DNA from: a virus
DNA: 64,000 bases
Direction: 5' to 3' (one strand)
IMG/VR virus record: IMGVR_UViG_3300049893_000773
Span: 1 to 64,000 of that record
The notes under the pieces were generated by a model. It saw only the letters and a program-made list of their open reading frames with translations. It ran no database searches and was not told the origin of the DNA. The first letter of the stretch is position 1. Every line of letters begins with the position of its first letter. Positions 18,615 to 45,724 of this stretch are shown in pieces. The position numbers and the translations under genes were made by a program.

Positions 18615-20347
18615 TCTTCATCCCCACTCATTGGGGCATCCTTCTCGTTGATGATCACACTATCGCACGTGAGCATCAGTCCGACAACCGACGAGGCGTG
18701 TTCAAGGGCACAACGAGTCACTTTCACAGGATCAATGATCCCAGAGGCAACCAAGTTCTGGAACTTACCCGTGGCGGCATTGTAGCCATAGTGAAACTTA
18801 TCCAACCCTGGGAGGAGGTCGAGCTGGAAATTAGTAAGTTCCCCGCCAAACTGGTCGTGATGGGAAATCGCCGCCTCAAGCTGGTTCATGACGACTTCCG
18901 CCGACTTGCCAGTATTTGACACGATCGTGTACAGGGGAGCCTTGCAAGCGTTCAGGATGACTTCCATTCCGGCTCGCAGGTCCGAATAGACACCATCCGT
19001 TAGCAAGTTCTTTTCTGCCAACTTGGCGGCATAGAAGAGAGCGCAACCACCACCAGGGACAATACCTTCCTTGACAGCGGCAATTGTGGCATTGTGGGCG
19101 TCTTCCACACGGTCCTTGCGCTCAAGGATCTCCGTTTCCGTAGAACCGCCAACCTTGACCACAGCAACGCCACCAGCAAGCTTTGCAAGGCGCTTGCGGT
19201 AACGATCAATGCGTAGGTCGTCCAAGGTGCCGTCCTGGGCTAGAGCGGCTCTGAGCATCTTCACACGCTCTTCCACGGCGCTCTTCAGTTCAGGATCAGG
19301 AGCACCAACGATCGTGGTCGAAGTCCTGGAGACTACAACCTTGGCTGCAACCCCAAGGTGATCAAGGTCCAGGTTCTTGAGTTGAACAGGGCTGGAAGCG
19401 TCCAGAACTGTTCCGCCGACCACGCAGGCAATGTCACCAAGGATATCCGTCCTGTTGTCTCCATAGGAGGGGGCCTTGACAGCGCAGCACAGCAGGTTTC
19501 CCTTGAGTCGGTTGACGATCAACGTCTGGAGGGCCGGTCCCTCCACGTCATCAGCAATGATCAAGAGGGAACGATCAGCGTTGGCGATCTTCTCCAGAAT
19601 CGGGAAAAGCTCGTCCAGAGACGAAATCTTTCGATTCGTGGCAAGAATCAGCGGGTTCTCAAGCTCAACCGTGTTCTTTTCTGGGTTGGTCACAAAGTAC
19701 GGGGACAGATAGCCGCCGTCGAATTGCAGACCCTCCACAACTTCCAAGATCGTAGAAGTGGACTTTCCGGGCTCAACAGTAATGATCCCGTCCTCCCCAA
19801 CCTTCTCAATGGCCTCTGCCAGGAGTTCGCCAATGTTAGTATCGCCATTGGCCGAGATGGTCCCAACGTTGATGATATCGTTCTTGGACTGCACAGGGGT
19901 GGCAATCCCCTTGAGAACCTTGAGAACCTCTTCAGTTGCTTGATCCATGCCCTTTTTGACATAGATCGAGTTACGACCAGAGGAAACCATCTTGATTCCC
20001 TCTTTGAGCATGGCATGAGCCAAAACCGTAGCTGTCGTGGTTCCATCACCAGCAATATCATTTGTCTTGCTGGCAACTTCCTTGATAAGCTCGGCTCCCA
20101 TGGAAGGAAGGCGATCCTTCAGGTTAATAGCCCTTGCAACCGTCACACCGTCCTTGGTGATCAGTGGAGCCCCAATTGTCGAGTCGATCGTCACGTTGTG
20201 ACCAGATGGACCCATGGTTGAGGCAACTGCCTTTGCAAGGATGCTGGCACCCTCATAGAGTTGCTTCCTGGCTTCATCACCAAAAACTACCTTCTGGTGA
20301 ACCCCTTGTGTTGCTGCCAAAAGTGCTTGTTGCGTTACCTTGTTCAC
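18611..20347 (-). CDS. groEL: Chaperonin GroEL-like
   Basis: TMGPSG, ITKDGVTVA, GDGTTTATVLA, EGIVPGGG, GIIDPVKVTR. Confidence 0.95.
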   Translation of the reverse strand: MNKVTQQALLAATQGVHQKVVFGDEARKQLYEGASILAKAVASTMGPSGHNVTIDSTIGAPLITKDGVTVARAINLKDRLPSMGAELIKEVASKTNDIAGDGTTTATVLAHAMLKEGIKMVSSGRNSIYVKKGMDQATEEVLKVLKGIATPVQSKNDIINVGTISANGDTNIGELLAEAIEKVGEDGIITVEPGKSTSTILEVVEGLQFDGGYLSPYFVTNPEKNTVELENPLILATNRKISSLDELFPILEKIANADRSLLIIADDVEGPALQTLIVNRLKGNLLCCAVKAPSYGDNRTDILGDIACVVGGTVLDASSPVQLKNLDLDHLGVAAKVVVSRTSTTIVGAPDPELKSAVEERVKMLRAALAQDGTLDDLRIDRYRKRLAKLAGGVAVVKVGGSTETEILERKDRVEDAHNATIAAVKEGIVPGGGCALFYAAKLAEKNLLTDGVYSDLRAGMEVILNACKAPLYTIVSNTGKSAEVVMNQLEAAISHHDQFGGELTNFQLDLLPGLDKFHYGYNAATGKFQNLVASGIIDPVKVTRCALEHASSVVGLMLTCDSVIINEKDAPMSGDEE

Positions 20348-23788: not shown

Positions 23789-25900
23789 ATGGCACCTCCT
23801 CGTGACGAATCATTCTTTGACCGCCTGACAAGGCTTTTCCGCTCAGGTCCGTCTGTTCGTCGCAAAATTCGGGGATATGACGACTCCGGGTATTACGACA
23901 AACAGGCCGTTCTAGCTGCCAGGGCAGGCAACGGGAACGGAATGATCCCGTTTCGCAAGGGAACCTCCCACAACTCCCCGTTTGCCATGTTGGGCGGCTC
24001 GGACATCATGAGCCGTATGACTCGGTACATGGAGTTTGCCGAGATGGAGTATACGCCCATCATCTCCAAGGCTTTGGACGTTCAAGCCGACGAAGCTTGT
24101 TCCGGGGATGAAAATGGCAAAAACTTCCACATCTACTCCGACAACCCAACCGTCAAGGAAGCCCTCTCGGAGCTGTTCTACGAAATCTTGAACGTGGACT
24201 TCAATCTCCGGGTGTGGATCAGGAACCTCTTGAAGTACGGGGACCTGTTCCTCTACAACGAGGTTGCCCCAGGCGTCGGGGTTGTCAACGTCATGGCTCT
24301 GAACGTCAATGAGGTTGAGCGGGATGAGGGCTTTGACGCCAACGATCCTTACGCTGTTCGTTTCCGTTGGCACAAAAACGGCCAAAAAGTCTTGGAGAAC
24401 TGGCAGGTTACCCACTTCCGCATCCTGGGAAATGATCAGTTTGCTCCTTACGGAACCTCGGTACTTGAGTCTGCCCGTCGTATTTGGCGTCAATACGTGA
24501 TGATGCTCGATGCCATGCTGGTTTACCGCTTGGTTCGCTCGCCTGAGAGAAGGGTGTTCTACGTTGACGTTGGAACTGTCGCTCCAAATGACATTCCGAA
24601 CTACATGAACACCGTCATGTCCACAATTCGAGGACAGATGGCAGTAGACAAGGAGACGGGTCGTCTGGATGAGAGGTTCAACCCAACGGACGTTCTGGAA
24701 GACTACGTGGTTCCCGTCCGTGGAGCCAACTCTGGCACCAAGATTGATACCCTTGCCGGTGGAACTCACCAGACCGCAACAGAGGACATCGAGATCATCC
24801 AGTCCCAACTCTTTGCCGCTTTGGGTGTGCCAAAGGCATATTTGGGATATGACGACATGCTTTCCTCCAAAGCCACCCTGGCCCAAGAGGACATCCGTTT
24901 CTCCAGGACGATCCAAATCTACCAGAAAATCATCATTTCCGAGCTGAACAAGCTTGCTATCCTTCACCTCTACGCCCGTGGATTTGAGGGAGAGGACTTG
25001 ATGGACTTCCAGCTTCGACTTTCCAATCCATCGTCCGTGGCACTTCAGCAGAAATTGGACCTGTGGAAGACCAAGATCGACATTATTGGAGCCGTTGATC
25101 AGATCGAGACCCGTTTCCTTCCAATGGAATGGCTCTACAAGGAGATCATGGGTTTCACCGAGGATGAGATCAAGGGTCTGCGGGAGAAGCTCAAAGAGGA
25201 CAAGCGCTTCGCTGTGGAACTGGATTCCATTGTTGACATGGACACCACGGGGGAGAACACCGTCGATCCATTCGACGCAACCTCCTACCTGCCCCCAGGA
25301 GGCTCTCCAACAATGGATACAACCCTTCCTTCCCCTCCGGTGGGTTCTTCCCTTCAAGGGGCTCCTCCATCGCCTACAGCGCCTCCAGATGCCCAACCTA
25401 CCACTTCCTCTTCCCCTGTCGCTCTGAGGCTGGGTAAGGGTGAGGTGCCGATCAAGGTCAACCCACAAGTCAGGATGGACAAGCGCAATCAGCGTCGGCG
25501 CAAGAGTGAGCTTGAAAAGCAGGCAAATCAGCCGGACTTCGCTGCAATGCTGCATCCGTCGAAGAATGCCTCCCTTCGTGACCTTTACGACCAGAACTTC
25601 TTGCGTGATCCCCTGGCCGAGCAGATTCGAAACGACCTTGGGGCAAACAAAGTTCGTATTCCCAAGGAAATCAAGACGATGCTTGAGAAGTTCGACAAGG
25701 CCACGGGCCGGTCGAAGATGCTGGTGGAACAAAGCCCACCTCCTCCTGAAGCAGATGGTCCAATGATCGACATGATCGAGGAAGAAATCGATTTCTCAGA
25801 CCTTCTTGAGTCCTTGGAGGTAAATGAGAGCAAATTGCCAACGTTTGCCATCTTGGCCAAACTTGGACTGGAAATCAAAGACGCAGAAACGGACACCTAA
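23789..25900 (+). CDS. Portal protein (T4 gp20-like) with a long Pro/acidic C-terminal extension
   Basis: YGTSVLESARRIW, YRLVRSPERRVFYVDVG, EDYVVPVRG, TKIDTLAGG, LGVPKAYL, EDIRFSR. Confidence 0.95.
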   Translation: MAPPRDESFFDRLTRLFRSGPSVRRKIRGYDDSGYYDKQAVLAARAGNGNGMIPFRKGTSHNSPFAMLGGSDIMSRMTRYMEFAEMEYTPIISKALDVQADEACSGDENGKNFHIYSDNPTVKEALSELFYEILNVDFNLRVWIRNLLKYGDLFLYNEVAPGVGVVNVMALNVNEVERDEGFDANDPYAVRFRWHKNGQKVLENWQVTHFRILGNDQFAPYGTSVLESARRIWRQYVMMLDAMLVYRLVRSPERRVFYVDVGTVAPNDIPNYMNTVMSTIRGQMAVDKETGRLDERFNPTDVLEDYVVPVRGANSGTKIDTLAGGTHQTATEDIEIIQSQLFAALGVPKAYLGYDDMLSSKATLAQEDIRFSRTIQIYQKIIISELNKLAILHLYARGFEGEDLMDFQLRLSNPSSVALQQKLDLWKTKIDIIGAVDQIETRFLPMEWLYKEIMGFTEDEIKGLREKLKEDKRFAVELDSIVDMDTTGENTVDPFDATSYLPPGGSPTMDTTLPSPPVGSSLQGAPPSPTAPPDAQPTTSSSPVALRLGKGEVPIKVNPQVRMDKRNQRRRKSELEKQANQPDFAAMLHPSKNASLRDLYDQNFLRDPLAEQIRNDLGANKVRIPKEIKTMLEKFDKATGRSKMLVEQSPPPPEADGPMIDMIEEEIDFSDLLESLEVNESKLPTFAILAKLGLEIKDAETDT

Positions 25901-25987: not shown

Positions 25988-26866
25988 ATGTTGAAGTCCC
26001 CTACTTTGAAGCACAACAAGAAGCGAAATGTCGGCCTCCTGAACGAGTTCTTTGCTCGTTACATTGCCAAGGCCATCCTCGAAAAGCGTGATGGGGACAT
26101 TGAGAAGGCGAAAGCCCTCTACGCTCGTCACTTTCAAAAGGGGACGGAGATAAGCCGGGAACTTCGGTTGTTCACCAATCTCTTTGAGACTCGTGTGGAA
26201 TCGAGGGAGGCAGCATTCTCCTTGCTCAACCAAGTGAAGGAAGCATGCAAGCTTCAATCCCAGGCACGTATTGACCTGGAGAAGACAGCCCTTCTCCATG
26301 AGATCAATCAGACCTTCGGGGAGTGCAACTTTTTCGATCAGGAGATTGCTGAGTACAGAGAGTATGCCACGGTTCAGGTGTTGCTCAACCACTGGCGTGG
26401 TCGTGTGGTGACTGAGAACCTGAGTGAAGCTGTCCAGTTGGAAGACAAGCTGGTTCTACGTCTCACCAGCAAGTCTCCTGTCGTTGAAAGCAAGTCCTTG
26501 GAAATGCAGGAATCCGAGGTTGATGGTTTGGTTGTCAACCTGATGATCCAGAAGTTCAACCAAAAGTTCGGGTCGATGTTGAACGAGGAGCAGAAGAAGC
26601 TCCTCCGACTGTACGTCTTCTCCAAGGACAATGCCAATGCCAAGGAAGAACTCGTTCGTCTCTTGGAGGGACTCAAGGAGAAGTCTTCCAAGATGATCGA
26701 CACTGCTATGGCCAAGGACAAGGATGCTCAGAGGGTGAAGCCAAAGCTCCTGGAAGTCAAGCAGATGCTTCAAGAGACCTACCAAGACACATCTGCACCA
26801 GATGACTCCTTGGTAACCTTCTACATGTCCATCTCCAAGCTGAATGAGGAACTCTCCAATGAGTAA
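25988..26866 (+). CDS. Head-assembly-associated hypothetical protein
   Basis: LKHNKKRNVG N-terminus; located between portal and protease; TAGTTA at 25935. Confidence 0.65.
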   Translation: MLKSPTLKHNKKRNVGLLNEFFARYIAKAILEKRDGDIEKAKALYARHFQKGTEISRELRLFTNLFETRVESREAAFSLLNQVKEACKLQSQARIDLEKTALLHEINQTFGECNFFDQEIAEYREYATVQVLLNHWRGRVVTENLSEAVQLEDKLVLRLTSKSPVVESKSLEMQESEVDGLVVNLMIQKFNQKFGSMLNEEQKKLLRLYVFSKDNANAKEELVRLLEGLKEKSSKMIDTAMAKDKDAQRVKPKLLEVKQMLQETYQDTSAPDDSLVTFYMSISKLNEELSNE

Positions 26867-27479
26867 GCTGCTTTTGCAAGAATTTGCCCAGTTCGACTAC
26901 AAGAAACCAACCGACGAGGAAGGCAAGCCACGTCTTTCCAAGTACGGGAACATCCTTGTAAAGGGAGTCATTCAGCGTGCTGACGCCCTTAACCAGAATG
27001 GTAGGGTCTATCCAAGGCACATCCTTGAGAGGGAAGTTCGCAACTACATGACCCTGGTCAAGGAACGCAGGGCTACCGGAGAGCTCGACCACGCAGATTC
27101 TCCAACCGTCAACCTCCAGAACGCTTCCCACATTATCACGGATATTTGGTGGGAAGGCAATGACCTCTGGGGTGAGATCGAGGTTCTTGAGGACCTTGAT
27201 CAAGGAAGGAACCTCAAAGGACTCCTGAAGAACGATGTGAAGGTTGGAATCTCCTCCCGTGCTCTTGGAAGCGTGCAGAGGCTTGGGGAAACCAATGTGG
27301 TTCAAGAGGACCTTTACCTTGTGTGCTGGGACATTGTTTCCGAGCCGTCCACCCACGGTGCATTCATGATGCAAGAAGCCAAGAGCTATTCCGACGAGGA
27401 AGTGCGTCGAATCATGAGCAAATCTGACCGTATTGACCGTGCCGCTAATGAAGTCCTGGCCCTGAAAGGAAGGCGCTGA
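26859..27479 (+). CDS. Prohead protease (T4 gp21-like)
   Basis: NQNGRVYP, GELDH, GISSRALGS, WDIVSEPSTHGAF. Confidence 0.92.
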   Translation: MSKLLLQEFAQFDYKKPTDEEGKPRLSKYGNILVKGVIQRADALNQNGRVYPRHILEREVRNYMTLVKERRATGELDHADSPTVNLQNASHIITDIWWEGNDLWGEIEVLEDLDQGRNLKGLLKNDVKVGISSRALGSVQRLGETNVVQEDLYLVCWDIVSEPSTHGAFMMQEAKSYSDEEVRRIMSKSDRIDRAANEVLALKGRR

Positions 27480-30530: not shown

Positions 30531-30565
30531 CTCTACTTAGCAAAAAAGGAATATCGGAGTAAACG

Positions 30566-32479
30566 ATGAAAACTTTCTCTCTTTCGCAATTGGCAGAAGG
30601 CGTAAACCGCCGCTCGCTTGGTGCTGATGCGCCAAGGCTTCTGTCCAAGTGGTCTGCAACCGGACTTCTTGAGGGACTTGGTGGTATGCAGAAGGAGACG
30701 CTCTCGCGCCTTCTGGAGAACCAAGTGGCCCAGCTCATTCAGGAGTCCAACGCCATCTCGACGGGTGGTGCATCTCTGACCTCCTCGGGTCAGATTGCAG
30801 GCTTCTCGAACGTTGCCTTCCCTATCGTTCGTAGGGTCTTCGCTGGCCTCGTTGCCAACGAAGTGGTTTCGGTTCAGCCAATGAGCCTTCCTTCGGGACT
30901 GCTCTTCTACTTGGATTACACCTACGGCTCGAACGTTGGTGGTGATGCAGGTCTGAGCCTCTCGACCTCGGCAACGGCTGACACCTACAAGAGGGCAACC
31001 TCGGTGTACGGTCTTCCAACTGGAGCCTCGATCCGTTCGGGTGCAACTCCTGCTGGTGGCCAGTACGACCTCGTGGGTCACGGCTTCTCCAAGGTTCACA
31101 AGGGTGCTCTGAACATCACTGGCTCTACGGACTCGGTGGGTTACTGGCTCTCGGGCTCGACCTGGACAACGGGCACCTCGGCTGTCGTGGCAGCTTCGGC
31201 TGACTGGACCGGCTACAACGCCCGCTACGCTGGGTTCCGCCAGGACATCCAGAATGGTCTTGACAACGGCGACTTCGACTACTGCTTCATGTTCATCTCG
31301 GCCTCCGAGTTGGCAGGCAAGATTTCGGGTCTCGATCTGAACGCTCTTGACCAAATCTCGATCACTGGTTTCGGTTCGGCAGCAAACTCTGTGACCGCTT
31401 GGGGCGACAGCTTCCAGGGTGGTCTTGGAGTCCTGAACCTCCGCGCTCTGAACAAGCGTGGTGACTGGAACGCAGCCGCAGGTACCTTCACCCCAAACCC
31501 ACTCGGCGGAAGCCACGTGTTGTTTGTGCTGAAGATCGCCAACGCAGGCACGGCTCCACAGCCAACCGGCGTGGCTTCGACCTACATCTCTGGCTCGGCA
31601 GCAATTGCAGACGCTCTTTCGGTTGGTTCGGAGGGCACGACCCTTACGGTCCCATCGTTCGAAACGGACTTCGCAGTTGACTCCTCGCCAAGGATTCCAG
31701 AGGTTGACATCAAGATCGAGGGTGTCTCGGTCACTGCAACGACCCGCAAGCTCCGTGCTCGTTGGTCGCCAGAGATGGCACAGGACCTTACGGCCTTCTA
31801 CTCCATCGACGTGGAAGTGGAACTCACAAATATCCTGTCCGAGATGATCACGCTCGACATCGACCGCGAAATCTTGAACGATCTCCTCACACAGGCCACA
31901 GCAGCAAACCTGTTCTGGTCGCGTGCTCCAGGACGCATCGTCAACAAGACCACTGGTCAGGAAGCTCTCCACAACAACGTCTTGGCCCCAGGCCCACAGT
32001 TCTTCGGAAATGTGCGTGAGTGGTACGAGACGCTCATGGAGACGATCACGGATGCAGCCAACACGATTCACAGGAAGACCCTCCGTGGTTCGGGTAACTT
32101 CATCGTCACGTCGCCAGACGTGGCAACGATCTTCGAGCACCTTGTGGCCTACAAGCCAGCATACAAGGTTGACTCCGATGGTCAGGTGAAGGAGTCGATG
32201 ACGATTGGCGCAGAGGCAATCGGCACGCTCAACAACCGCTACGTGGTCTACAAGGACCCTTACTTCCCACAGAACAAGATTCTGATTGGTTTGAAGGGCA
32301 ACACCTTCCTGGAGTCGGGATACATCTACGCTCCATACGTTCCACTCATCTTGACTCCTGTGATCTACGCACAGGAGGACTTCACTCCTCGCAAGGGTGT
32401 GATGACCCGCTACGGTAAGAAGATGGTCCGTGCTGACTTCTACGCCACTGTGACCGTGCTCGACATGGCCCTCATCTGA
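30566..32479 (+). CDS. Major capsid protein (T4 gp23-like) with a large Ser/Thr/Gly-rich insertion
   Basis: LLENQ, FPIVRRVF, VSVQPMSLPSGLLFYLD, RKLRARWSPEMAQDL, IDREI, YAPYVP, PRKGVMTRYG. Confidence 0.95.
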   Translation: MKTFSLSQLAEGVNRRSLGADAPRLLSKWSATGLLEGLGGMQKETLSRLLENQVAQLIQESNAISTGGASLTSSGQIAGFSNVAFPIVRRVFAGLVANEVVSVQPMSLPSGLLFYLDYTYGSNVGGDAGLSLSTSATADTYKRATSVYGLPTGASIRSGATPAGGQYDLVGHGFSKVHKGALNITGSTDSVGYWLSGSTWTTGTSAVVAASADWTGYNARYAGFRQDIQNGLDNGDFDYCFMFISASELAGKISGLDLNALDQISITGFGSAANSVTAWGDSFQGGLGVLNLRALNKRGDWNAAAGTFTPNPLGGSHVLFVLKIANAGTAPQPTGVASTYISGSAAIADALSVGSEGTTLTVPSFETDFAVDSSPRIPEVDIKIEGVSVTATTRKLRARWSPEMAQDLTAFYSIDVEVELTNILSEMITLDIDREILNDLLTQATAANLFWSRAPGRIVNKTTGQEALHNNVLAPGPQFFGNVREWYETLMETITDAANTIHRKTLRGSGNFIVTSPDVATIFEHLVAYKPAYKVDSDGQVKESMTIGAEAIGTLNNRYVVYKDPYFPQNKILIGLKGNTFLESGYIYAPYVPLILTPVIYAQEDFTPRKGVMTRYGKKMVRADFYATVTVLDMALI

Positions 32480-32514
32480 TCCTTCGGGATCTTAGCTCCC
32501 GGTAGAGGGAGCGT

Positions 32515-32556
32515 CAAGGCCCTCGGTGCTTTTCGCATCGGGGGCTTTGTTCATTT
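32515..32556 (+). terminator. Rho-independent terminator after MCP
   Basis: Stem AAGGCCCTCGGTGC/GCATCGGGGGCTTT followed by T-rich sequence; two smaller hairpins precede it (32478-91, 32495-512). Confidence 0.7.
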
Positions 32557-32591
32557 GGGGATTATGGATTTAACCTCTTCCAGAGGTAAAC

Positions 32592-33392
32592 ATGGAAAAG
32601 AGAGTTAAAGGCCCAGACGGAAGAGAATATTGCACCACTGCTTGTTGTGGAGGCCCACCAGCCAAGCAGCCCGACCCAGAGGGGACAACGCTCACCGTCC
32701 CCTCTGAATCGCTCGAAGATAAGCTTCCGCCTTTGTTGGATATTCAGCTCTTGAAAGCAAAGATGTTGACCCCTGGCATCTTTGGGAGAAAAGATGCGTC
32801 CACAGTAGCGCCTATGCAGCGTTCGTTTTTCTGGTCAAGGAGACCGGGGAACTACGTGGATAGACTTACGGGACAGTCTGCCATGAAGAAGGTGGTCCAA
32901 CGGGTAACCGTTTCCGAGATGGAAGTCCCAGGGTCTAATCCAAAGACCTTCGTCTTGGTCCAGCGAGAGGAGGAACGAGAGGTTCCAATCGACTCCTTTG
33001 AGGGAACAGTCAAGGATTGGTATGAGAAGCTGGGGGAGGAAGTCCTTCAGTGTGCCAACGAAATTTTCCGCAAGTGCTTGGTGCCTGCCAATCTTGTTGA
33101 GATGTCCCCGGATCTCGTGAATCTATTCGAGGCCATTGGATTCGATCCCGGCAAATGGAGGCAGGTCGGTGCAAATGAGTTGCTTGCAACCAATAAGCTT
33201 TTTGGCAGGTATGCCGTTGTACGGTGTAACAACCTACCGGCAAACGAGTTGCACGTCAAGCTGATCTCGGAGATTTTCTACACTTTCGGCAATTTGACCG
33301 GCCCTGTCCCGGAAATCGACATGGAATTGCTCACCAAACCCGCGACGTTGGCTGATTACAAGGTCACTGTGTTGGACATGCCTCTCCTGTAG
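32592..33392 (+). CDS. Truncated major-capsid-protein paralog 1
   Basis: EGTTLTVPS, FWSRRPG..V...TGQ, FEGTVKDWYE, SPDL and VTVLDM all match the adjacent MCP. Confidence 0.75.
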   Translation: MEKRVKGPDGREYCTTACCGGPPAKQPDPEGTTLTVPSESLEDKLPPLLDIQLLKAKMLTPGIFGRKDASTVAPMQRSFFWSRRPGNYVDRLTGQSAMKKVVQRVTVSEMEVPGSNPKTFVLVQREEEREVPIDSFEGTVKDWYEKLGEEVLQCANEIFRKCLVPANLVEMSPDLVNLFEAIGFDPGKWRQVGANELLATNKLFGRYAVVRCNNLPANELHVKLISEIFYTFGNLTGPVPEIDMELLTKPATLADYKVTVLDMPLL

Positions 33393-33424
33393 AGTCATTC
33401 TTTCCTCAACAGAGGAAAGAATCA

Positions 33425-34078
33425 ATGACAATGACAGAGACGGTGAATACCCCATACAGGACAGCTTCCGCGCTGCCCAACAACCAACAAACGGAGACCA
33501 ATAAGCGGTTTTGGTCCCGTACCCCCGGCAGGTTCGTCAACAAGTGGACCGGGCAGGATAGCATGGCAAACGCTGGACTGAGCAACGGTCCAATGTACGT
33601 TGGAAATGTCCGTGAGTGGTACGAGACGTTTGTGGAAACGATTCACGATGCTGCTGCGGTTATCAAGAAGCGTTCTGGCCAGGACCCCAACATCCTTGAG
33701 GTCTCCCCCGACATCTTGACCATTCTTGAGTGCACCGTGTCGTATAGATCAGTCTATTACGCAAATGAGGACCAGCCAAGGGTCACCATGAAGGGTGCAA
33801 TTGGAGGGCTTGTTGGGCAAGTGGCTGGCAGGTACCATGTGCACGTCAACCCCGACTTCCCTGCGGATACAGCGAAGCTCGTGCTCGTGACCGACCAGAG
33901 AGTTTTGACGGAGACCGTGAAGGCACAGCCGCTTCAGGCCATGATTGATGGGAAGCCGGTGCCAAGCTACGTGGAAGATGAGTGGACCACAACTCAGGTT
34001 CGCAAGACTGAACCGCTTCCTTCCATCACCCGCCTTGATGGTATGACGATCAAGGTTCTCGACATGAATATTCTGTGA
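33425..34078 (+). CDS. Truncated major-capsid-protein paralog 2
   Basis: FWSRTPGRFVNKWTGQ, GNVREWYETFVETIHDAA, SPDI, GRYHV...PDFP and IKVLDM match the MCP C-terminal half. Confidence 0.8.
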   Translation: MTMTETVNTPYRTASALPNNQQTETNKRFWSRTPGRFVNKWTGQDSMANAGLSNGPMYVGNVREWYETFVETIHDAAAVIKKRSGQDPNILEVSPDILTILECTVSYRSVYYANEDQPRVTMKGAIGGLVGQVAGRYHVHVNPDFPADTAKLVLVTDQRVLTETVKAQPLQAMIDGKPVPSYVEDEWTTTQVRKTEPLPSITRLDGMTIKVLDMNIL

Positions 34079-34115: not shown

Positions 34116-35183
34116 ATGGACCTTCGTTTCCGAGAAGAATGCTACGGCCACAGTGGTGGTCAAACCGATTGCTCTCTATACGCCCTTCTAGGCGACGAAG
34201 TGATCGGGAAGGTAGATATCGCCTACCACCGAAATGGTGGCCGTAGAGAGGCGTATATCAAGATGATCGAAGTGCAGCCTAATTTCCAGGGGAAAGGGGT
34301 TGGCAAGGCTTTGATCTATAAGTTGGCCAGTCAAATCCCTTACGAGGCGATTGATTGGGGGATGACCACGCCTGAAGGTGGGGCATTGAAGCAGGCAATG
34401 GACCGGGAGTTTGGAACATCCTACGTTCCACCTGAGCCCGAGCCAGACATGGATGACCCCAAGTACGCTGACGACCTCAGTGGCGAAAGGTATTTTGCCG
34501 ACCTAAAGGTTTGGCGGCAAAAGCAAGGGTACGTGGATGAGGCTAATTACCACGGAAAGGGAATGGAAAGAATGAAAGTCAAGGACCTCAAGAAGCTGGT
34601 TGCCGAGAGTGTAGCCGCTGCTGTGAAAGAAGCCGGATATGACCAGTACGGGGAGGGTGTGTCGCAACCTACGGAGCCAAGCTGGTTCGACACGCTGATG
34701 GCCCCTGATGAGCCTGCACCTGAACTCAAGGGCACGCCAGAAGCCAGGAAGCTGGTTGATGCGGCCAAATTGATGTTGAAGAAGGCTGGTCCAAAGATTG
34801 ACAAGGAAGTCATGAGCCAAGTCTCTGCTGAGTTGGAGCACAACTTCAACCTCCCAGACGGGGTAAGCTGGGAAGTGGTCCATGCTGCCTTTGAGGAGCT
34901 CAAGAGTGACATGCTTTCCGAGGCTCCACCAGAGGGATGGCACGGGACTGTGCGGGCCATGAAGACCCATGGACACACTGGCAAGGGTGGGGAGATCGAC
35001 AACCCATACGCCTTGGCACACTACATGGCAAACAAGGGGGATGAGCCTCACTACAAGGAGCAGCCAACCTCCAAGAAGGGTACTCCTGTGAAGAAGAAGG
35101 AGTACATGAAGACGGAAGCCTTCGTTGATTTGGTCCGTCAGATGATCCGCGAGGAGATCCTGAATCTCCGCAAGGGGAAGTGA
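34116..35183 (+). CDS. GNAT-like acetyltransferase domain fused to a helix-tagged domain
   Basis: IEVQPNFQGKGVGKALI acetyl-CoA motif A; internal MKVKDLKKLVAESV; IDNPYALAHYM. Confidence 0.65.
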   Translation: MDLRFREECYGHSGGQTDCSLYALLGDEVIGKVDIAYHRNGGRREAYIKMIEVQPNFQGKGVGKALIYKLASQIPYEAIDWGMTTPEGGALKQAMDREFGTSYVPPEPEPDMDDPKYADDLSGERYFADLKVWRQKQGYVDEANYHGKGMERMKVKDLKKLVAESVAAAVKEAGYDQYGEGVSQPTEPSWFDTLMAPDEPAPELKGTPEARKLVDAAKLMLKKAGPKIDKEVMSQVSAELEHNFNLPDGVSWEVVHAAFEELKSDMLSEAPPEGWHGTVRAMKTHGHTGKGGEIDNPYALAHYMANKGDEPHYKEQPTSKKGTPVKKKEYMKTEAFVDLVRQMIREEILNLRKGK

Positions 35184-35560: not shown

Positions 35561-35597
35561 TGTGACGTTTGCCAGCCCTACTTAACGGGTAGATCCC

Positions 35598-36930: not shown

Positions 36931-37593
36931 ATGGCACGGCTGTTTATCACACAACGAGAGATCGACTATTTTAACGATATTGCCAAGGAAGTCATCAAGG
37001 ACATCATTGGGCAGGCGATCATCTATTGGCCGGTGTCTACCCTGAAGACCAAGGTTCACCCCGTCTACAATGAGGCTGTGAAGAAAAACTTCGAGAACCC
37101 GATCAAGGTTGATGCCTTGGTTGGTCAGCCTCAATGGGAGACGAAGATGACGCAATTTGGACCTGAGCAGCAAAACACCTTGGAGGTCTTCCTCCAGGCA
37201 AGGGATTTGGCTCAGAAGGGTCTAGAGATTGCGGAGGGTGACTTTTTCACCTATGGTGACAACGCCTACGAAATCGTATCCAGCGTCAACATGAATAACT
37301 ACTTTGGTCAGGTGGAGCACGATGTGGCTTTCAAGGTGATTGGAAAGCTGGCACGTCCTGGGGAGTTCAACCCGCAGAAGTTCTTCAAGCCTGACGCTGA
37401 GACGATCATTCCTACTCCAACCCCTTTCGAGCAACAGAGGGGTATTTCTGAAAACACGGAAGGGCCAACAGGAGATATTCGTGACGTTAAGGAACGTCTT
37501 GGCGACGACCTTCCAGCACCCGCACTTGGAGAAGGGCCAAGGCGAGTGGATGTTGATTCGACCCTGAGAGCAAATAAGCTGTACGATGAATGA
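36931..37593 (+). CDS. Neck/head-closure protein (T4 gp14-like)
   Basis: EVIKDIIGQ..IYW, VYNEA..K.F, EGDFF.YG..YEI; follows the gp13-like gene. Confidence 0.65.
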   Translation: MARLFITQREIDYFNDIAKEVIKDIIGQAIIYWPVSTLKTKVHPVYNEAVKKNFENPIKVDALVGQPQWETKMTQFGPEQQNTLEVFLQARDLAQKGLEIAEGDFFTYGDNAYEIVSSVNMNNYFGQVEHDVAFKVIGKLARPGEFNPQKFFKPDAETIIPTPTPFEQQRGISENTEGPTGDIRDVKERLGDDLPAPALGEGPRRVDVDSTLRANKLYDE

Positions 37594-38284
37594 ACTAAAA
37601 GCCGCCTTTCAGTTTTGGCTCCTTGAGAGTAATGACCTTGAGGAAGCCAAGTTCAATCCCGACGTTTTGGACAAAATGGACGGGCCTGAGTCCATGCTTT
37701 CAGCCGCTCGGGACAGACTTCCAGCACTTGGAGAGGGTTCATCTCGTGCTGCCTTTTTGCTGGACAGCAAGAGGGTGCTCAAGGTTGCCATCAACAACAA
37801 GGGGTTGGCCCAGAACAAGGCCGAGTATGAGCTTTCACAGCATCCTGGGGTGGCTCCTTTGGTGACAAGGATCTTCCGGGTTGGCAAGGACTACTCGTGG
37901 CTCGTTTCCGAACTTGTTCGTCCGCTCAGGACCAACAAGGAGTTTGAGCAGCTTACTCAAGTGCCTTGGAGCTTCTTCATCTCCTTCCTGAGTTTTTACG
38001 AGGGCAATGGAGACATTGGAAAATCCTTCAATCTCGCCGTGAAGTCTCAAATTGATCAGGACAGGCGCAAGAAGAGCCCCTTCCCAGGCATCTCTGTGAG
38101 AGGGATCGAGCACCTTCCATTCATTGGGCGGTTCATGACCGCTCTTGGGAACCGCCCCGATTTGATTCCAGCAGACCTGATGAAGCTGGATCACTGGGGG
38201 AAGACACCGGATCAGCGTGTGGTCCTGTTGGATTCTGGCTATACCGAAGAAGTGTGGTCCTCGCACTATTCGGATGAGTCATAA
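37586..38284 (+). CDS. Protein-kinase-like protein 1
   Basis: LGEGSSRAAF (Gly loop), VLKVA, QNKAE, DLMKLDHWG, VVLLDSG. Confidence 0.65.
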   Translation: MNELKAAFQFWLLESNDLEEAKFNPDVLDKMDGPESMLSAARDRLPALGEGSSRAAFLLDSKRVLKVAINNKGLAQNKAEYELSQHPGVAPLVTRIFRVGKDYSWLVSELVRPLRTNKEFEQLTQVPWSFFISFLSFYEGNGDIGKSFNLAVKSQIDQDRRKKSPFPGISVRGIEHLPFIGRFMTALGNRPDLIPADLMKLDHWGKTPDQRVVLLDSGYTEEVWSSHYSDES

Positions 38285-39605: not shown

Positions 39606-42600
39606 ATGAGCGACCAAATTTTCAAGAGCCCAGGGTTCTACGACCGTGAAATCGACCTCTCTGCCAGGACGGTTGAGCCTTCTGGTATTCCGGCTGCAAT
39701 CGTTGGTACTTCGCAAAAGGGACCAGCTTTCGTGCCTGTCACGATTGGTTCTTTCGCTGACTTCCAGAGCAAGTTTGGCGACGTAGACCCAAAGTTTCCG
39801 GCTCCATATGCAGTGCAGAAGTGGCTTGACAACCGCAACTCGGCAACTTTCATTCGAGTTCTGGGTGGTGGAGCCAACTCCACCCAGACGGATCTTGACA
39901 ACACCAGGACCAAGGGTATCGTCAAGAACGCTGGTTTCTCGATCAGTGGTTCGTCGGTGGGTGCTGGAGACCTTCGCTACAAGGGTTCGACGCAATTCAT
40001 CGTTGCCAAGCACGTTGTGACGGGAACGGAAGTCTACGGCCTTCCAATGTTCTCGGACAACTCGTCCTTCTTCACGACTGGTTCATCTACGGACGTGTAC
40101 TTGGTTCGTGGAATGATCTTCACTGCCTACGATACCCGTGTGATGGTGATGTCTGCCTCGGATACCTTCTCTGGGGCTCTGGACGACTTTGCAACGCTCG
40201 ACTCGGCCTCGACCAGCGTGACCTACAAGAAGTTCAAGCTTGTCCTCTCCTCGTCCTCTGGATCGTCTTTCGGAAACACTGACGGGTACGCTGGCGTCAG
40301 GATCATGACGGCTTCGCTGAACCCATCGAGCCCTGACTACATCGCCAAGATCCTGAACACGGACCCTGAGAAGTTCGAGACGGAGCGTCACGTCCTCTAC
40401 TGCGACTTTGCAGTGGATGATGAGATCGCTACTGTTTCGTCGGCCTCGAACTGCGTCGGTGTGGTTTCTGGCTCCTCGAACACCTCGGCAAACTCCGGTG
40501 ACACCTCCTTGACGCTCAGGGATGCCTTCGGACGTTTCGACACGAGGTTCACGACTCCAAAGACGCCTTGGTTCATCTCGCAGCCATTCAGCGCCACGGA
40601 GCACAACCTCTTCTACTTCGAATCCCTGGACGATGGTGCCTACGCCAACAACAAGTTCAAGATTTCGATCGCTGGTCTGAGAGCATCTTCCGATCCGAAG
40701 TACCTCTTCGGAACGTTCACGGTTGTTGTGCGCGACTTCAACGATTCGGACGTGGAGCCAAGGGTGTTGGAGCAGTTCAACAACGTTTCGCTCGACCCAA
40801 CCGCAGACAACTACATTGCCAAGGTGATTGGTGATGTCAAGGTGGCCTACTCCTTCGACACCCTTGATCCAGACGACCGTCGTTTGAACAAGGAAGGTCA
40901 GAGCCCAAACCGTTCCAAGTTGATCCGCGTGGTTGTTTCCGATCAGGTGACAAGAGGCACGATTCCAGCCAATGCTCTGCCATTCGGCTTCCGTGGATTC
41001 GAGTTCCTGAACACCTCCCACACCGGAAACGACGGCTTGCCAGTTGGTGGTATCTCTGGCTCCTTCATTCGCCTTGCTGCTTCTGGCACAACGGATCACC
41101 GTCTTCTCTCTGCAATGATTCCTCCACTCCCATACCGCTTCAAGGTTACGAGGGGTGAGGTTTCGTCCTCTGCTGGCTTTGAGGGACAACCTGGAGCCAA
41201 CGAGGTTGTGGACTCCCGCTACTACTGGGGTGTCAAGACGGAGCGTAACGTCAACGTCCTGAACCCAAACATCTCGAACGAGCCAAACGCCTTGGTTGCG
41301 GCTCTGACGAAGTTCCACGGTATCAGCAAGTTGGATGTCCTTGTGACGGGTTCGAAGACGGACACGTACAACGACAACAAGTTCACCCTGGCCCGCGTAT
41401 GCCTTTCCAACATCACTCTTGCCGACGTTACGGCTTCGGCAGAGACTCACATGAAGGAAGCAGCTTACATCCGTAACGGAACGGTTGATCCATCGGATTA
41501 CTCCGTAACGGATACCAACGGTGCTCGTGTGACCTTCGCAACCCTCCTGATGAAGGGTTCCACGGCTGCGGTGTTCAACCAGTTCTCGGATTATGCCAAA
41601 TTCACGACAGTGATGGCAGGCGGATTCGACGGCGTGAACATCCTTGACAAGAATGCCGCTCGTTTGAACGACAAGGCCACCTCGACAGAGAGTGGCGGTG
41701 GAGCAAACAGCAGCTACACGTCCCCAGGATTCTCCACGAACCTCAACGGTTCTGGAAAGAACAACGCCTCGATCTTCTCGTACCAAACGGCAGTGAAGAT
41801 CATCACGGACCCATTGGTTTCGCAGCACAACCTCCTGGCAATCCCAGGAATTCGTGATCCATTCGTCACTGACGATGCAGCCACGAAGACAGCGGAACAC
41901 ACCTTGTCCATGTACCTCATGGACATTCCTTACTACGACTACAACGGAACTCGCATCTTCGATGGAGATACGAGCCGTTACACAGATTCCGACGAAACGA
42001 AGGATGTTTTCGATGCTCGTGCAATCGACAACGACGCAGCAACAACGTACTTCCCTAACTCGGTAATCGACGACCCAACAAATGGCCGCAAGGTCACCAT
42101 CCCAGCTTCCGCAGTTGGTTTGGCTGCAATCGGTTACAACGACAGGGTGGCATACCCATGGTTTGCTCCTGCCGGGTTCAACCGTGCGGCTCTTGGCTTC
42201 GTCAACCTGACATCGACGAGGCTCAACCAGCCAGAGCGCGACAACCTGATTGCTGCTCGCATCAACCCAATCGTGAAGTTCCCACGTGAGGGTTATGTGA
42301 TTATGGGTCAAATGACGCTGAAGCAGGGTAAGAGCTCTTTGACCTCGATGAATGTCAAGAGAATGGTGCTCGACGCCAAGCGTTCGATTGTTGAAATCGG
42401 AAACAGGTTGATGTTCGACAACATCACCCAATCGCTCCGCGACGAGGTTGTGAAGCAATATACCGCCGTTCTTTCCAGCATTCAGTCTAAGGGCGGACTC
42501 GATGCGTTTGTTGTGATCTGTGACAACAGCAACAACACCCAAGTCGATATCGACTCCAACCAGATGAATGTTCAAATTCGTTTGCTTCCAACGCTTTCGG

Positions 42601-42656
42601 TGGAATTCATCGCAATTGACTTCATCATCACACAGAGCGGCGTTCAGTTCGTCTGA
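39606..42656 (+). CDS. Tail sheath protein 1
   Basis: FKSPGFYDREID, KGPAFVPV, PWFAPAGFNR, INPIVKFP, EFIAIDF. Confidence 0.92.
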   Translation: MSDQIFKSPGFYDREIDLSARTVEPSGIPAAIVGTSQKGPAFVPVTIGSFADFQSKFGDVDPKFPAPYAVQKWLDNRNSATFIRVLGGGANSTQTDLDNTRTKGIVKNAGFSISGSSVGAGDLRYKGSTQFIVAKHVVTGTEVYGLPMFSDNSSFFTTGSSTDVYLVRGMIFTAYDTRVMVMSASDTFSGALDDFATLDSASTSVTYKKFKLVLSSSSGSSFGNTDGYAGVRIMTASLNPSSPDYIAKILNTDPEKFETERHVLYCDFAVDDEIATVSSASNCVGVVSGSSNTSANSGDTSLTLRDAFGRFDTRFTTPKTPWFISQPFSATEHNLFYFESLDDGAYANNKFKISIAGLRASSDPKYLFGTFTVVVRDFNDSDVEPRVLEQFNNVSLDPTADNYIAKVIGDVKVAYSFDTLDPDDRRLNKEGQSPNRSKLIRVVVSDQVTRGTIPANALPFGFRGFEFLNTSHTGNDGLPVGGISGSFIRLAASGTTDHRLLSAMIPPLPYRFKVTRGEVSSSAGFEGQPGANEVVDSRYYWGVKTERNVNVLNPNISNEPNALVAALTKFHGISKLDVLVTGSKTDTYNDNKFTLARVCLSNITLADVTASAETHMKEAAYIRNGTVDPSDYSVTDTNGARVTFATLLMKGSTAAVFNQFSDYAKFTTVMAGGFDGVNILDKNAARLNDKATSTESGGGANSSYTSPGFSTNLNGSGKNNASIFSYQTAVKIITDPLVSQHNLLAIPGIRDPFVTDDAATKTAEHTLSMYLMDIPYYDYNGTRIFDGDTSRYTDSDETKDVFDARAIDNDAATTYFPNSVIDDPTNGRKVTIPASAVGLAAIGYNDRVAYPWFAPAGFNRAALGFVNLTSTRLNQPERDNLIAARINPIVKFPREGYVIMGQMTLKQGKSSLTSMNVKRMVLDAKRSIVEIGNRLMFDNITQSLRDEVVKQYTAVLSSIQSKGGLDAFVVICDNSNNTQVDIDSNQMNVQIRLLPTLSVEFIAIDFIITQSGVQFV

Positions 42657-42724: not shown

Positions 42725-45724
42725 ATGGCACAAGGATTTAAGAGCGCTGGCGTAACAACCCGAGAAATCGACCTGACGGGACCAACGGCCAATGAGCCAG
42801 TTGGAATTCCTGCTGGAGTGATTGCTCCTGCTTCGAAGGGACCTGCCTTTGTGCCAGTGACCCTCCCTGGGATGAAAGACTTCGTTGTTCGCTTCGGCGC
42901 ACCAACAACGACTTTCCGAAACGGTCCTCTGGCCGCAAATGAGTGGCTCAGGAACTCGCAGGCAATCACCTACATGAGGGTTCTCGGTGCTGGTGATGGT
43001 CAAAAGAGGACTTCTTCTGGTGATAACGCCGGAAAGGTGACCAGCGCAGGATTCGTGGTTGGTGATCAACAGCCACAAGCAACGCTTTCTGGAAACCTGG
43101 GAAGCAATGCCTATGCCAACACAACGGGCCCTCTTGGAAGGACATACTTCCTGGGAGCCTTCATGTCGCAGTCTTCTGGCTCGGCAGTCTTCACGGACGC
43201 CGGTCTCTCTGCCCAGGGCATTCCATTGATCCGAGGCGTGCTCATGGCTGCTTCGGGTGTGGTGTTGACCCTTTCCAGCTCCTACAACACGACTTCGACG
43301 GCTCCATCGACGACTGCTGCTGCAACGGCAGCAAATATCAGGGGAGCAATCTCTGGTGCTGTGAACCTTGGTTCCAGCAAGCAGGAATTCGTGATGTTCC
43401 TGAATGGTCACAAGGCAACGGACTCTGCTTACAGCAATGTGATCACGGCTTCGTTTGATCCTTCGGCTCCAAACTACTTCGGCAAAATCTTCAACAAGGA
43501 CCCACTCCTCCTTGAGCGTGCCGGGTACGTCCTTTACAGCCAGTACGACATCCACCCAGCGATTGCCGTGGTAACGGGCTCTGGCATCGTTGTAGCAGCC
43601 TCGGGAGCCGCCGCAAGCAACGGTTACCGTGAGCGTTGCGCCTTCCTCCTGACGGGTTCTCAGACGAGAAACAGCGGTACGACAACGGCACCAAACTTCG
43701 AAGGATTCGAGGACCGTTTCGCAACTGCTCGCTCGCCTTGGGTGATCTCGCAGAGATTCGGTGGTACTCCAGTCAACCTCTTCCAGGTTTGGGCTTCGGG
43801 TGACGGTGAGGAGCCAAACTCCAAGCTGAAGATTTCCATCGAAAACATCCAGCCATCGAACTCCGACACAACTCAGTTCGGAACGTTCGACCTGCTTGTC
43901 CGCGACATGAATGACTCGGACAACAACAAGGTTGTTCTTGAGGCATGGAGGGCTTTGAGCCTGGATCGTGATAATCCAAGGTTCATTGGCAAGATCATTG
44001 GAGACAACAGGGTCTTCTACAACTTCGACGCCACCCTTGGCAAGCAAAAACTGATTACGACGGGCGATTACCCAGTTCGTTCGAAGTACATCCGTGTGCA
44101 GATTGCTGACGACGTGATCAACGGTGAGACCCCAGAGACGGCCCTGCCAATGGGCTTCCGTGGATACCCTCACCTTGTGACCTCGGGAACGGCTCCAATG
44201 CCAGCCTTCTCGGACTCGACGGGTTACAGCGTCACCAACCCATTCTACAGGATGGTGCAGCCGCCTGTGCCATTCCGCTTGGTTTTGACCAGGGGAACAA
44301 GCTCGACCCAAACCTCGGACAAGAACCTCTACTGGGGTGTTCAGTTCGAGCGTCAGGAGTCGGCAACCGATCCAAACTCCAGCTACGTGGCCAACGACTC
44401 GATCAAGTCCTACGCCAAGTATTTCCCAACCTACCAGACCGTCTGGCAGAACGTTCTGGTTTCGGCAAACCAGGGTACGGCTGATACGGCAGAGAATGGC
44501 ATCCTGGATGCAGATAGGTTCAACAACAACCTGTTCACCCTGGAGAACCTGACTGTCCCATACGTGTCTGCAAGTGGAATCGCTGACGGAACAAAGCCGG
44601 AAAACTGGACCTACACCCGTGCAGGCGGAATCACCACAAACACCACTGCCTTGACCAAGGCTCTCACGGTGTCGGATCTCTTGGACCCAGGCGCTCGTTC
44701 CCTGGCCAAGTTCTCCTTCACCCTTCAGGGTGGGTTCGATGGTGTTCGCATCTTCGATGCCGACATGGCTCAGCTTACGAACAAGGCCATTGCCGAGGAA
44801 ATGACCTACACGGGTCGTGGTTTGTCTTCGGGTCCAACGGTTTCCGCCTACAACAAGGCTCTGACGATCATGCAGGACACCACGGAAGTTGACATTCAAC
44901 TCCTGGCAATGCCTGGAATTCGCCACCGTTACCTGACTGACACGGCAATCCGTGCAACTGAAGAGCGTTTCGACGCTTTGTATGTCATGGATATCGAGGA
45001 GAAGGATACGGATAGCCTCTTGGTTTCCGGTTCCACTCAGCGTATCAGCGTGAACAACACGATCTCGTACTTCTCGGGACGTGGACTCAACAGTTCGTTT
45101 GCCGCTGCTTACTTCCCAGACCTCTCGATCAGGGATGGATACAACCGCGACACGGTTCGTGTTCCACCTTCGGTTGGTGTTCTTGGAGCTTTCAGCAAGA
45201 ACGACGCTGTTGGTTACCCATGGACTGCACCAGCAGGATTCACCCGTGGAGCCCTGGAGAGCTCGGCAGAGCCAATCGTTCGCCTCTCCAAGGCAAACAT
45301 GGATGCCCTGGCCGCTGTCAACATCAACCCAATCGTGTCCTTCCCAGGAAGCACTGGTCCGGTTGTGTGGGGCCAGAGGACGGTCCTTGCTCGTCAAAGC
45401 TCCCTGGATAGGGTGAATGTCCGTAGATTGCTCATCGCGATCCGTCGTGAGGTGCGTAAGGTGGCTAACAAGATGCTCTTCGAGCAATCGCGTGAGGCAA
45501 CTCTTGCACGCTTCAACCAGCAAGTCAACCCAATCCTCAAGAAGGTGCAGGATCAAAAGGGAGTTGATGGCTTCAAGGTGGCAATCGACACCACAACCAC
45601 AACCCAGGCTGACCTTGAGAACAAGACGCTCAGGGGCAAAATCTGGATCATTCCTACGAAGACCCTTGAAGCACTCTCGGTTGACTTCGTAATTACCAAC
45701 CGTGGAACCTTCTCCCAGGGATGA
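42725..45724 (+). CDS. Tail sheath protein 2
   Basis: FKSAGVTTREID, KGPAFVPV, PWTAPAGFTRG, INPI, WGQRT, LDRVNVRRLL. Confidence 0.92.
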   Translation: MAQGFKSAGVTTREIDLTGPTANEPVGIPAGVIAPASKGPAFVPVTLPGMKDFVVRFGAPTTTFRNGPLAANEWLRNSQAITYMRVLGAGDGQKRTSSGDNAGKVTSAGFVVGDQQPQATLSGNLGSNAYANTTGPLGRTYFLGAFMSQSSGSAVFTDAGLSAQGIPLIRGVLMAASGVVLTLSSSYNTTSTAPSTTAAATAANIRGAISGAVNLGSSKQEFVMFLNGHKATDSAYSNVITASFDPSAPNYFGKIFNKDPLLLERAGYVLYSQYDIHPAIAVVTGSGIVVAASGAAASNGYRERCAFLLTGSQTRNSGTTTAPNFEGFEDRFATARSPWVISQRFGGTPVNLFQVWASGDGEEPNSKLKISIENIQPSNSDTTQFGTFDLLVRDMNDSDNNKVVLEAWRALSLDRDNPRFIGKIIGDNRVFYNFDATLGKQKLITTGDYPVRSKYIRVQIADDVINGETPETALPMGFRGYPHLVTSGTAPMPAFSDSTGYSVTNPFYRMVQPPVPFRLVLTRGTSSTQTSDKNLYWGVQFERQESATDPNSSYVANDSIKSYAKYFPTYQTVWQNVLVSANQGTADTAENGILDADRFNNNLFTLENLTVPYVSASGIADGTKPENWTYTRAGGITTNTTALTKALTVSDLLDPGARSLAKFSFTLQGGFDGVRIFDADMAQLTNKAIAEEMTYTGRGLSSGPTVSAYNKALTIMQDTTEVDIQLLAMPGIRHRYLTDTAIRATEERFDALYVMDIEEKDTDSLLVSGSTQRISVNNTISYFSGRGLNSSFAAAYFPDLSIRDGYNRDTVRVPPSVGVLGAFSKNDAVGYPWTAPAGFTRGALESSAEPIVRLSKANMDALAAVNINPIVSFPGSTGPVVWGQRTVLARQSSLDRVNVRRLLIAIRREVRKVANKMLFEQSREATLARFNQQVNPILKKVQDQKGVDGFKVAIDTTTTTQADLENKTLRGKIWIIPTKTLEALSVDFVITNRGTFSQG

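Follow-up and report, generated by a model that had tools for sequence, protein, structure and literature searches.

The DNA analysed here is the first 64,000 bases (the window) of the 87,662-base viral record IMGVR_UViG_3300049893_000773, and the subject is a pair of small genes, par1 and par2, that lie directly behind the major capsid protein (MCP) gene. The MCP gene (30566..32479, + strand) encodes a 637-residue protein of the Gp23 family with an insertion of about 240 residues (PF07068 E 3.9e-75; phrog_138 E 5.5e-70; T4 gp23 structures E ~2e-27), and represents the parent fold of both small proteins. The par1 gene (32592..33392, +) encodes 266 amino acids, comprising a Cys-rich leader, a remnant of MCP residues ~356-385, a linker, and an A-domain core with an inserted β-hairpin (residues 75-263; 32814..33380, +). 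The par2 gene (33425..34078, +) encodes 217 amino acids, comprising a disordered 22-residue N-terminus, an A-domain core (residues 24-214; 33494..34066, +) and a long C-terminal β-hairpin. The source is an uncultured giant T4-like freshwater phage; although CheckV estimates the record to be only ~25% complete, the public run X6 contains a contig of 301,945 bases that is ~95% identical, from which the phage is taken to be giant. Very probably, the pair consists of small, intact accessory genes, each encoding a stand-alone A domain of a Gp23-type HK97 capsid protein, and both belong to an old, diversified and uncatalogued family of short phage proteins.

The relationship to the coat protein was established by BLASTP, which aligned MCP residues 448-637 with par1 78-266 (29% identity, E 7e-15) and MCP residues 443-637 with par2 21-217 (36% identity, E 2e-29), and the two small proteins with each other (E 1e-10). 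A first-pass annotation of this DNA had described both open reading frames (ORFs) as counterparts of the C-terminal half of the adjacent MCP, and this was borne out for the last ~195 residues, with all three ORFs lying where it had placed them. It had also reported that the spine-helix region (RKLRARW...DREI in the MCP) is missing from both, which agrees with structural models that align to T4 gp23 residues 314-521 only. Its claim that the P-domain strands are absent stood in part: the MCP P-strand motifs are gone, but the site is not empty, as each model has a long predicted β-hairpin there (par2 149-165/190-212; par1 219-232/242-261).

The par1 protein retains more of the MCP than its A domain. 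As first noticed in the initial annotation, it keeps the sequence EGTTLTVPS, the segment that precedes the E-loop in the MCP, with par1 residues 30-38 (32679..32705, +) identical to MCP 356-364. The codons of the two genes differ at the third position in 7 of 9 cases, and the segment is therefore not a recent DNA copy. Furthermore, P0052, the nearest relative of par1, has a longer MCP-homologous stretch at the same place, so that the segment is read as an in-order remnant of MCP ~356-385. From these alignments, par1 appears to be an internally deleted derivative of an MCP and not a simple C-terminal piece. The Cys-rich leader (residues 1-28, window 32592-32675; DG...CTTACCGGP) is kept in P0052, which is 42% identical, and in P0005, a par1 allele; par1 contains 6 cysteines, compared with 1 in the whole MCP.

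A PEID segment near the C-terminus of par1 had been proposed to lie out of MCP order, and profile-profile comparison of family tails gave this weak to moderate support. Taken from 17 long-type members, the tail matched MCP 359-383 (P 7.5e-5, probability 62%), and the same tail did not match MCP 555-637 (P 0.96). The competing placement, in which the tail is an in-order remnant of the MCP P-strand region, had been suggested by BLAST and MAFFT and was rejected as unsupported by that second comparison.

Reference collections hold little that resembles these proteins. In Pfam, par1 had no match and par2 matched DUF5813 alone, at 21.3 bits against a cut-off of 25, and neither reached the gathering threshold of Gp23 (PF07068). 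Among the 99 rows of the family alignment A3, 28 matched Gp23 at E<=1e-3, 10 of those 28 being MCPs. PHROGs contained no family for par1, par2 or the other short proteins, and tblastn found no match to par1 or par2 in the 50,697 deposited phage genomes of the GenBank phage collection. The same search with two further members gave no match for P0050 and, for P0166, the MCP of LR756508 only.

The structures of both proteins were predicted with AlphaFold2 using 99-row alignments. The par2 model had a mean predicted local distance difference test score (pLDDT) of 88.3 and a predicted template modelling score (pTM) of 0.80; the par1 model reached a pLDDT of 86.7 and a pTM of 0.71, with its N-terminal ~70 residues at low confidence. 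The PDB matches listed by Foldseek were all HK97-fold capsid, encapsulin or related phage and engineered-cage proteins. Using VIA-align, both models superposed solely on T4 gp23 residues 314-521, with 112-126 residues aligned; the homologous A domain of the Gp23 family is present in par1 and par2, and the N-arm, the insertion/E-loop region and the spine helix have no counterpart in either model. The A-domain-only architecture proposed in the first-pass annotation, for which superposition on the capsid fold had been recommended, is thereby upheld, and a complete HK97 fold, which would have spoken against it, was not found. On these models, par1 and par2 are A-domain-only HK97 derivatives that would be unable alone to tile a shell. 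A complex prediction of the full-length MCP with par2 scored 0.00 in a setting where the controls did not fold, and weighs neither way.

Related proteins were sought with a profile built from five short sequences, which was searched against 1.84 billion representatives and gave 428 matches at E<=1e-3, 226 at E<=1e-10 and 16 at E<=1e-30. From the 428, 151 proteins were retrieved and classified. Seventy were short, with a Met start within 30 residues of the first motif and the MCP C-terminal strand motif at the stop, and a further 16 differed from these only by a longer N-terminal extension, giving 86 complete short ORFs; the rest comprised 26 short proteins without the end motif, 18 fragments or other sequences, and 21 MCPs of at least 400 amino acids. 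The members share one layout: a start, [FY]WSRxPGKFVNKxTG, a variable loop (occupied by a β-hairpin insert in par1 and some others), GTVREWYETLVETIxDA (helix 1), VSPDVxTILE (helix 2), two strands, and V.VLDM at the stop. In the smallest members (~130 amino acids) the last core strand is joined directly to the C-terminal strand. par2 fits this layout fully and par1 fits it with a 77-residue N-terminal extension, and neither has spine-helix or P-strand motifs. Members range from ~120 to 265 amino acids and come from uncultured large T4-like phages of freshwater, wastewater and marine origin. In the protein Atlas, 26 of the 30 nearest clusters were unnamed viral proteins, the three listed being 153-171 amino acids long with 51-69 members each. 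Weak structural leads pointed to short proteins of cultured phages, for example a 125-aa protein of Erwinia phage Y3 (E 1.7e-2). Judged by what its sequences keep and lack, the family appears to originate from an MCP minus the N-arm, insertion/E-loop region, spine helix and P-domain strands.

One subfamily, of about 232 amino acids, carries an extra N-terminal domain of ~90 residues before the A domain. An MCP origin of this extra domain was considered and ruled out. Two of the N-extended members (L038 7752-8447 and L057 7713-8408) lie inside co-directional sugar-modification operons, where a UDP-glucose-dehydrogenase-like gene follows directly or lies nearby, and the genes of these operons encode a glycosyltransferase, an aminotransferase, an acetyltransferase, methyltransferases, a UDP-glucose dehydrogenase and a cytidylyltransferase.

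A tree of 121 rows and 147 profile columns was computed, leaving out fragments, P0001, P0005, four odd N-extended proteins and three MCPs. All 40 MCPs fell on one side of a single branch (Shimodaira-Hasegawa-like approximate likelihood ratio test, SH-aLRT, 94) and have short tips, and par1 and par2 fell in a 19-row group of short proteins only (SH-aLRT 98). Within it, par1 groups with P0052 and P0139 (99), and par2 is nearest to P0002, P0012 and P0013. Because this all-short clade lies outside the 40 sampled MCPs, par1 and par2 belong to an old lineage of short proteins, and the initial description of the pair as truncated copies of this phage's own MCP was not sustained. Since its origin the short family has evolved several times faster than the MCPs, and its members have been gained, lost and swapped among close relatives.

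The residues that have withstood this fast evolution are those of the coat protein. Over 152 profile columns, 81 short proteins were compared with the MCP consensus; 34 columns were at least 70% conserved among the short proteins, and at 31 of these the residue is that of the MCP consensus, while at none is a different residue conserved. The MCP motifs common to the family lie at the A-domain start, in the two helices and at the C-terminus. A further 21 columns, at least 90% conserved in MCPs and below 40% in the short proteins, lie at the end of helix 1, in the strand after helix 1 and in the strand leading to the P-domain. In T4, the mutations N381S, A387T and K420R, which bypass the need for gp24, have been placed in the gp23 A domain, where adjoining subunits of one capsomer meet (PMC9546572). 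Counted along the HMMER alignment to T4 gp23, these positions correspond to MCP D518, E524 and R558, and in the short family the same residues are found in 50/81 (D), 61/81 (E) and 47/81 (R) proteins. We infer that the short proteins keep the face by which A domains contact their capsomer neighbours, an assignment to interface and not to fold core, while the parts that touched the lost domains would have relaxed.

The sequence around the genes contains several expression signals. Three consecutive hairpins follow the MCP stop (32478..32560, +), the last of which (32515-32549 in a terminator scan) has a 15-bp stem and a U-rich tract and is terminator-like; the cluster folds with a free energy of -54.6 kcal/mol (z -5.0), and none of 200 shuffles was as stable. 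par1 and par2 thus lie beyond a strong terminator-like hairpin cluster placed directly after the MCP stop, as the first-pass annotation had recognised. par1 has a Shine-Dalgarno sequence, AGAGGT, 5 nt upstream. The 32-nt spacer between par1 and par2 contains a perfect 10-bp hairpin with a 4-nt loop (33398..33421, +; -22.1 kcal/mol, z -3.76, 0/200 shuffles as stable). As the 3' arm of this hairpin is the Shine-Dalgarno sequence of par2, translation of par2 is probably coupled to ribosomes finishing par1, and the arrangement suggests coupling to, or gating by, par1 translation. The first-pass annotation had reported no TANTTA motif for par1 and par2. The promoter-like word CTACTTA occurs 27 nt before the MCP start (30533-30539) and also 14 nt before the start of an adaptor-like ORF (35578-35584), but its enrichment in the window is not significant (4 seen against 1.1 expected; 5 of 100 shuffles reach 4), so that its absence before par1 and par2 says little.

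The distribution of the short genes was examined at 90 loci, drawn from the best 80 of at least 597 matching stretches in viral contigs together with 11 loci of another search. An MCP was present at 87 of the 90, leaving out L021 with its split MCP gene, and 60 of those 87 have at least 1 kb downstream; a short paralog follows the MCP at just one of these 60 related loci, L024. There, identity to the window phage is 84.6% for the MCP, 82% for the protease, 83% for the adaptor and 58% for the portal, and the single paralog is 34% identical to par2 and 32% to par1. When 14 related records (24-82% complete) were searched whole, three held short members: one had a single member adjoining its MCP (G001); another had a tandem pair of diverged members 11 kb away from its MCP, flanked by homing-endonuclease-like ORFs on one side and three phrog_4301 paralogs on the other (G003); and the third, in which no MCP is present, had one N-extended member (G007). 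A metagenome scan for close relatives of par2 returned 16 loci, namely 15 MCPs or MCP pieces and one 145-aa short member (L114), with no close relative among them. The MCPs of the clade are ~560-680 amino acids long, evolve slowly, and were found as single copies when whole records were searched.

Several MCP genes of related contigs are unusual in structure. At L092, two full-length MCPs of 640 and 631 amino acids lie in tandem (4680-6599 and 6690-8582) with the same C-terminal motif, and look like a true gp23/gp24-like pair. MCP genes split in two frames occur at L021 (6635-8125 and 7971-8588) and L109 (318-1745 and 1749-2237), through either assembly error or a real split. L021 had been considered as a short member and was rejected, because its MCP is full-length but changes frame immediately behind the spine helix, and G006 was reclassified likewise; the frame break at L021 falls exactly where the short family begins.

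Turnover is also visible between very close relatives. The 301,945-base X6 contig differs at 108 positions over 2,166 bases of the MCP region, skips 783 bases that are essentially par1, has 86 other letters instead, and then runs through par2. A relative from X5 carries 830 different letters in place of 833 bases of the slot; a second X5 contig, at depth 5, skips 1,314 bases, most of par1 and par2; and X3 holds both genes at ~95% identity. Given this distribution, par1 and par2 are accessory genes. Where present, members of the family are maintained: P0005, a 264-aa par1 allele from another sample, is intact with an in-frame two-codon deletion, and all 15 listed members of the 90% cluster of P0002 (18 in all) are 221 amino acids long, on contigs of up to 297,674 bases. 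Among the differences displayed (40 of 747), par2 has 11 synonymous and 8 nonsynonymous, and the MCP 7 and 4. Decaying remnants, named in the first-pass annotation as the outcome that would overturn a functional reading, are not what these intact alleles, this uniform cluster and the variants in par2 describe. For P0001, probably the par2 allele of X3, the record begins only at Met57, and either a disrupted start or an error in a depth-5 contig is possible.

The interpretation that we tentatively prefer, with the target, the binding and the expression that we infer, is that par1 and par2 are mimics of the coat protein that act as decoys and titrate host capsid-sensing immunity. Under this model, the two proteins would resemble unassembled coat protein, since they keep the conserved A-domain motifs of the MCP, including the helix that lies at the intracapsomer subunit-subunit interface in T4, and would have lost everything needed for joining the lattice. 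Lacking those parts, such a protein could occupy factors that recognise the axial domain of the MCP without being incorporated into the shell. The main target would be capsid-sensing immunity of the host, titrated by a decoy made together with the MCP, and the next most likely target would be the MCP of a co-infecting rival phage. Immunity of this kind is real and widespread, and a recent preprint describes Avs7 and Dsr1 as binding the MCP (bioRxiv 10.64898/2026.01.04.697583). Furthermore, genes that are distributed so patchily and turn over so fast are more likely to have a dispensable role of the conflict type than an essential structural one, which fits a decoy or an inhibitor and argues against a fixed capsomer plug.

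A second fragment of the coat protein occurs in the same genome, outside the window. A 56-aa ORF (G000:C1:86797-86967, +; the same as L018 1495-1665) copies the N-terminal motif of the MCP, matching Gp23 profile positions 14-49 (E 9.8e-6), and lies between glutamine-amidotransferase-like and DHFR-like ORFs about 53 kb from par1 and par2. Copies of the MCP N-terminus would be explained by a general strategy of trigger mimicry and not by a capsomer plug, and were therefore counted in favour of a decoy. In its widest form, in which large T4-like phages would keep a toolkit of small proteins copying pieces of the coat protein (the A domain, the N-terminal motif) as decoys that saturate host receptors for unassembled capsid protein, the proposal is speculative and we hold it with considerable doubt; if true, it would represent a new anti-defence principle, mimicry of a phage's own immune trigger.

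Five observations weigh against the decoy model. A literature search at abstract level found no printed precedent for a decoy made of an MCP fragment. Some family members lie in sugar-modification operons, which a decoy role does not predict. The location of the genes, in the late head operon and past a strong terminator, would also suit a part in assembling the phage's own head. The start of P0001 at Met57 and the depth-5 contig that skips both genes indicate that the genes may be dispensable even in nature. Finally, the conserved columns may represent the fold core instead of an interface.

A different, and on balance unlikely, explanation is that the products of par1 and par2 serve the phage's own head, as part of its structure or in its assembly; encoded in the gene-24 slot, they would occupy vertices or capsomer centres, or act as a chaperone or regulator that caps MCP A domains until capsomers form. 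The head module runs in T4-type order (portal, prohead protease, scaffold-like ORF, MCP, par1, par2, GNAT-domain ORF, adaptor-like ORF and two tail-sheath paralogs). In T4, the vertex gene (gp24) sits in the slot filled here by par1 and par2, directly after the MCP gene. A role in the head would also suit the lack of a second full-length Gp23 gene in the 87.7 kb of the record searched, the retained interface-helix motifs, and the co-expression with late genes that is suggested by the common strand, the good ribosome sites and the coupling hairpin. However, a gp24 gene may lie elsewhere, given the completeness of the record, and no short gene is present at 59 of the 60 related MCP loci with sufficient downstream sequence or, in the case of par1, in the ~95%-identical relative. 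Structural partners normally co-evolve at similar rates, whereas the L024 copy is 34% identical where the MCP is 85% identical. Other family members lie far from any head gene, and a protein without the P-domain and E-loop cannot be held in the lattice as gp24 is.

Inhibition of rival phages, in which the A-domain protein would join or cap capsomers made by the MCP of a relative, whether co-infecting or superinfecting, and poison assembly while the phage's own MCP remains insensitive, would account for the patchy distribution, the rapid turnover and the several divergent copies per genome. It would also account for interface motifs that match the clade-wide MCP consensus and not the phage's own MCP. 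We nevertheless consider it quite unlikely, as no mechanism of self-immunity is visible and late expression behind a terminator is poor timing for excluding a rival.

A role as enzyme partner or adaptor is improbable. In this scheme the proteins would form a complex with acetyltransferase or glycosylation enzymes, as a scaffold or as a substrate-like module by which the enzyme reaches the coat protein. A GNAT-domain gene follows par2, the N-extended members of L038 and L057 lie among sugar-modification genes, and archaeal A-domain encapsulins are found in two-gene operons with enzymes, one being reported in a stable complex with GAPDH (PMC8346489). However, the GNAT link is not conserved, L024 having the non-GNAT part only; most family members are seen without context; and the enzyme association is limited to a single subfamily that has an extra N-terminal domain. 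That the genes are decaying remains, without function, of a capsid or vertex gene that was duplicated is scarcely credible and largely refuted, because gain and loss between close relatives, the par2 allele recorded from Met57 and the frameshift-split MCP genes of L021 and L109 stand against 86 of 151 retrieved proteins that are complete with the same start and end architecture, motifs conserved across proteins just ~30% identical, confident models, intact alleles, an old clade, and displayed variants that are more often synonymous than nonsynonymous. The remaining probability falls to some other function.

The closest known architecture is that of the A-domain encapsulins, which have the A-domain-only HK97 fold in common with par1 and par2. 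The published account describes these Family 4 proteins (PF08967/DUF1884; PF0899, PDB 2PK8) as ~100 amino acids long, more than 90% archaeal and from hyperthermophiles, with a speculative function (Andreas & Giessen, 2021, PMC8346489). As described there, they are cellular proteins encoded downstream of an enzyme in two-gene operons, whereas par1 and par2 lie in a phage head module and belong to a family of 120-265 amino acids; they are 29-36% identical to a Gp23-type MCP, and their nearby enzyme gene (GNAT) is only downstream and is not conserved in L024. None of the 99 family and MCP rows matched PF08967 at E<=1e-3, and this lack of a match together with the different setting indicates an independent truncation of a Gp23-type MCP. 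T4 gp24 (PDB 1YUE), which forms the pentameric vertices, has a full fold with P, A and insertion domains (PMC9546572); it has the same gene position and parentage as par1 and par2 (217 and 266 amino acids for par2 and par1, respectively) but differs from them in being more than an A domain. Compared with the parent family of Gp23 MCPs (PF07068), the short proteins are without about two thirds of the fold, faster-evolving and patchily distributed. The 56-aa ORF is, like par1 and par2, an isolated capsid-protein piece in an accessory region, although it copies the N-terminal motif and not the A domain. A search of the literature, at abstract level and without supplementary files, found no description of stand-alone A-domain proteins or truncated MCP paralogs in phages.

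A-domain-only relatives of the HK97 fold have so far been described only as a small, mostly archaeal cellular family, and here the same truncation arises independently in phages, in a large family that keeps the conserved motifs of the coat protein and shows the behaviour of a conflict gene. Should these proteins bind the coat protein or its sensors, they would provide a handle on capsomer nucleation and on phage evasion of capsid-sensing defence, as well as a natural minimal A domain for engineering. If they self-assemble into rings, they would offer a test of the facet hypothesis made for A-domain encapsulins.

The remaining genes of the head module provide context. The portal (23789-25900) and prohead protease (26844-27479) genes lie upstream, and an acidic scaffold-like ORF of 692 amino acids is located between the protease and the MCP. 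The gene after par2 (34116..35183, +) encodes 355 amino acids with a GNAT-type acetyltransferase domain (PF00583 E 1.9e-7) and a long C-terminal extension; in L024, the extension alone is present as a separate 154-aa ORF (9427-9891) with 33% identity to residues 153-328. Further downstream, two adjacent large tail-sheath paralogs of 1016 and 999 amino acids (window 39606-42656 and 42725-45724) both belong to phrog_23. A GroEL-type chaperonin is encoded at window 18611-20347 (-; phrog_5725 E 7.5e-146), 10 kb upstream of the head module. Proteins of phrog_4301 (~210-230 amino acids) occur near A-domain genes in three genomes, at window 37586-38284, at L024 8715-9398 and 13098-13610, and at L098 6562-8496, where three copies lie in tandem. 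Their motifs (HxxNWG ... ILDxGY) are presumably protein-kinase-like.

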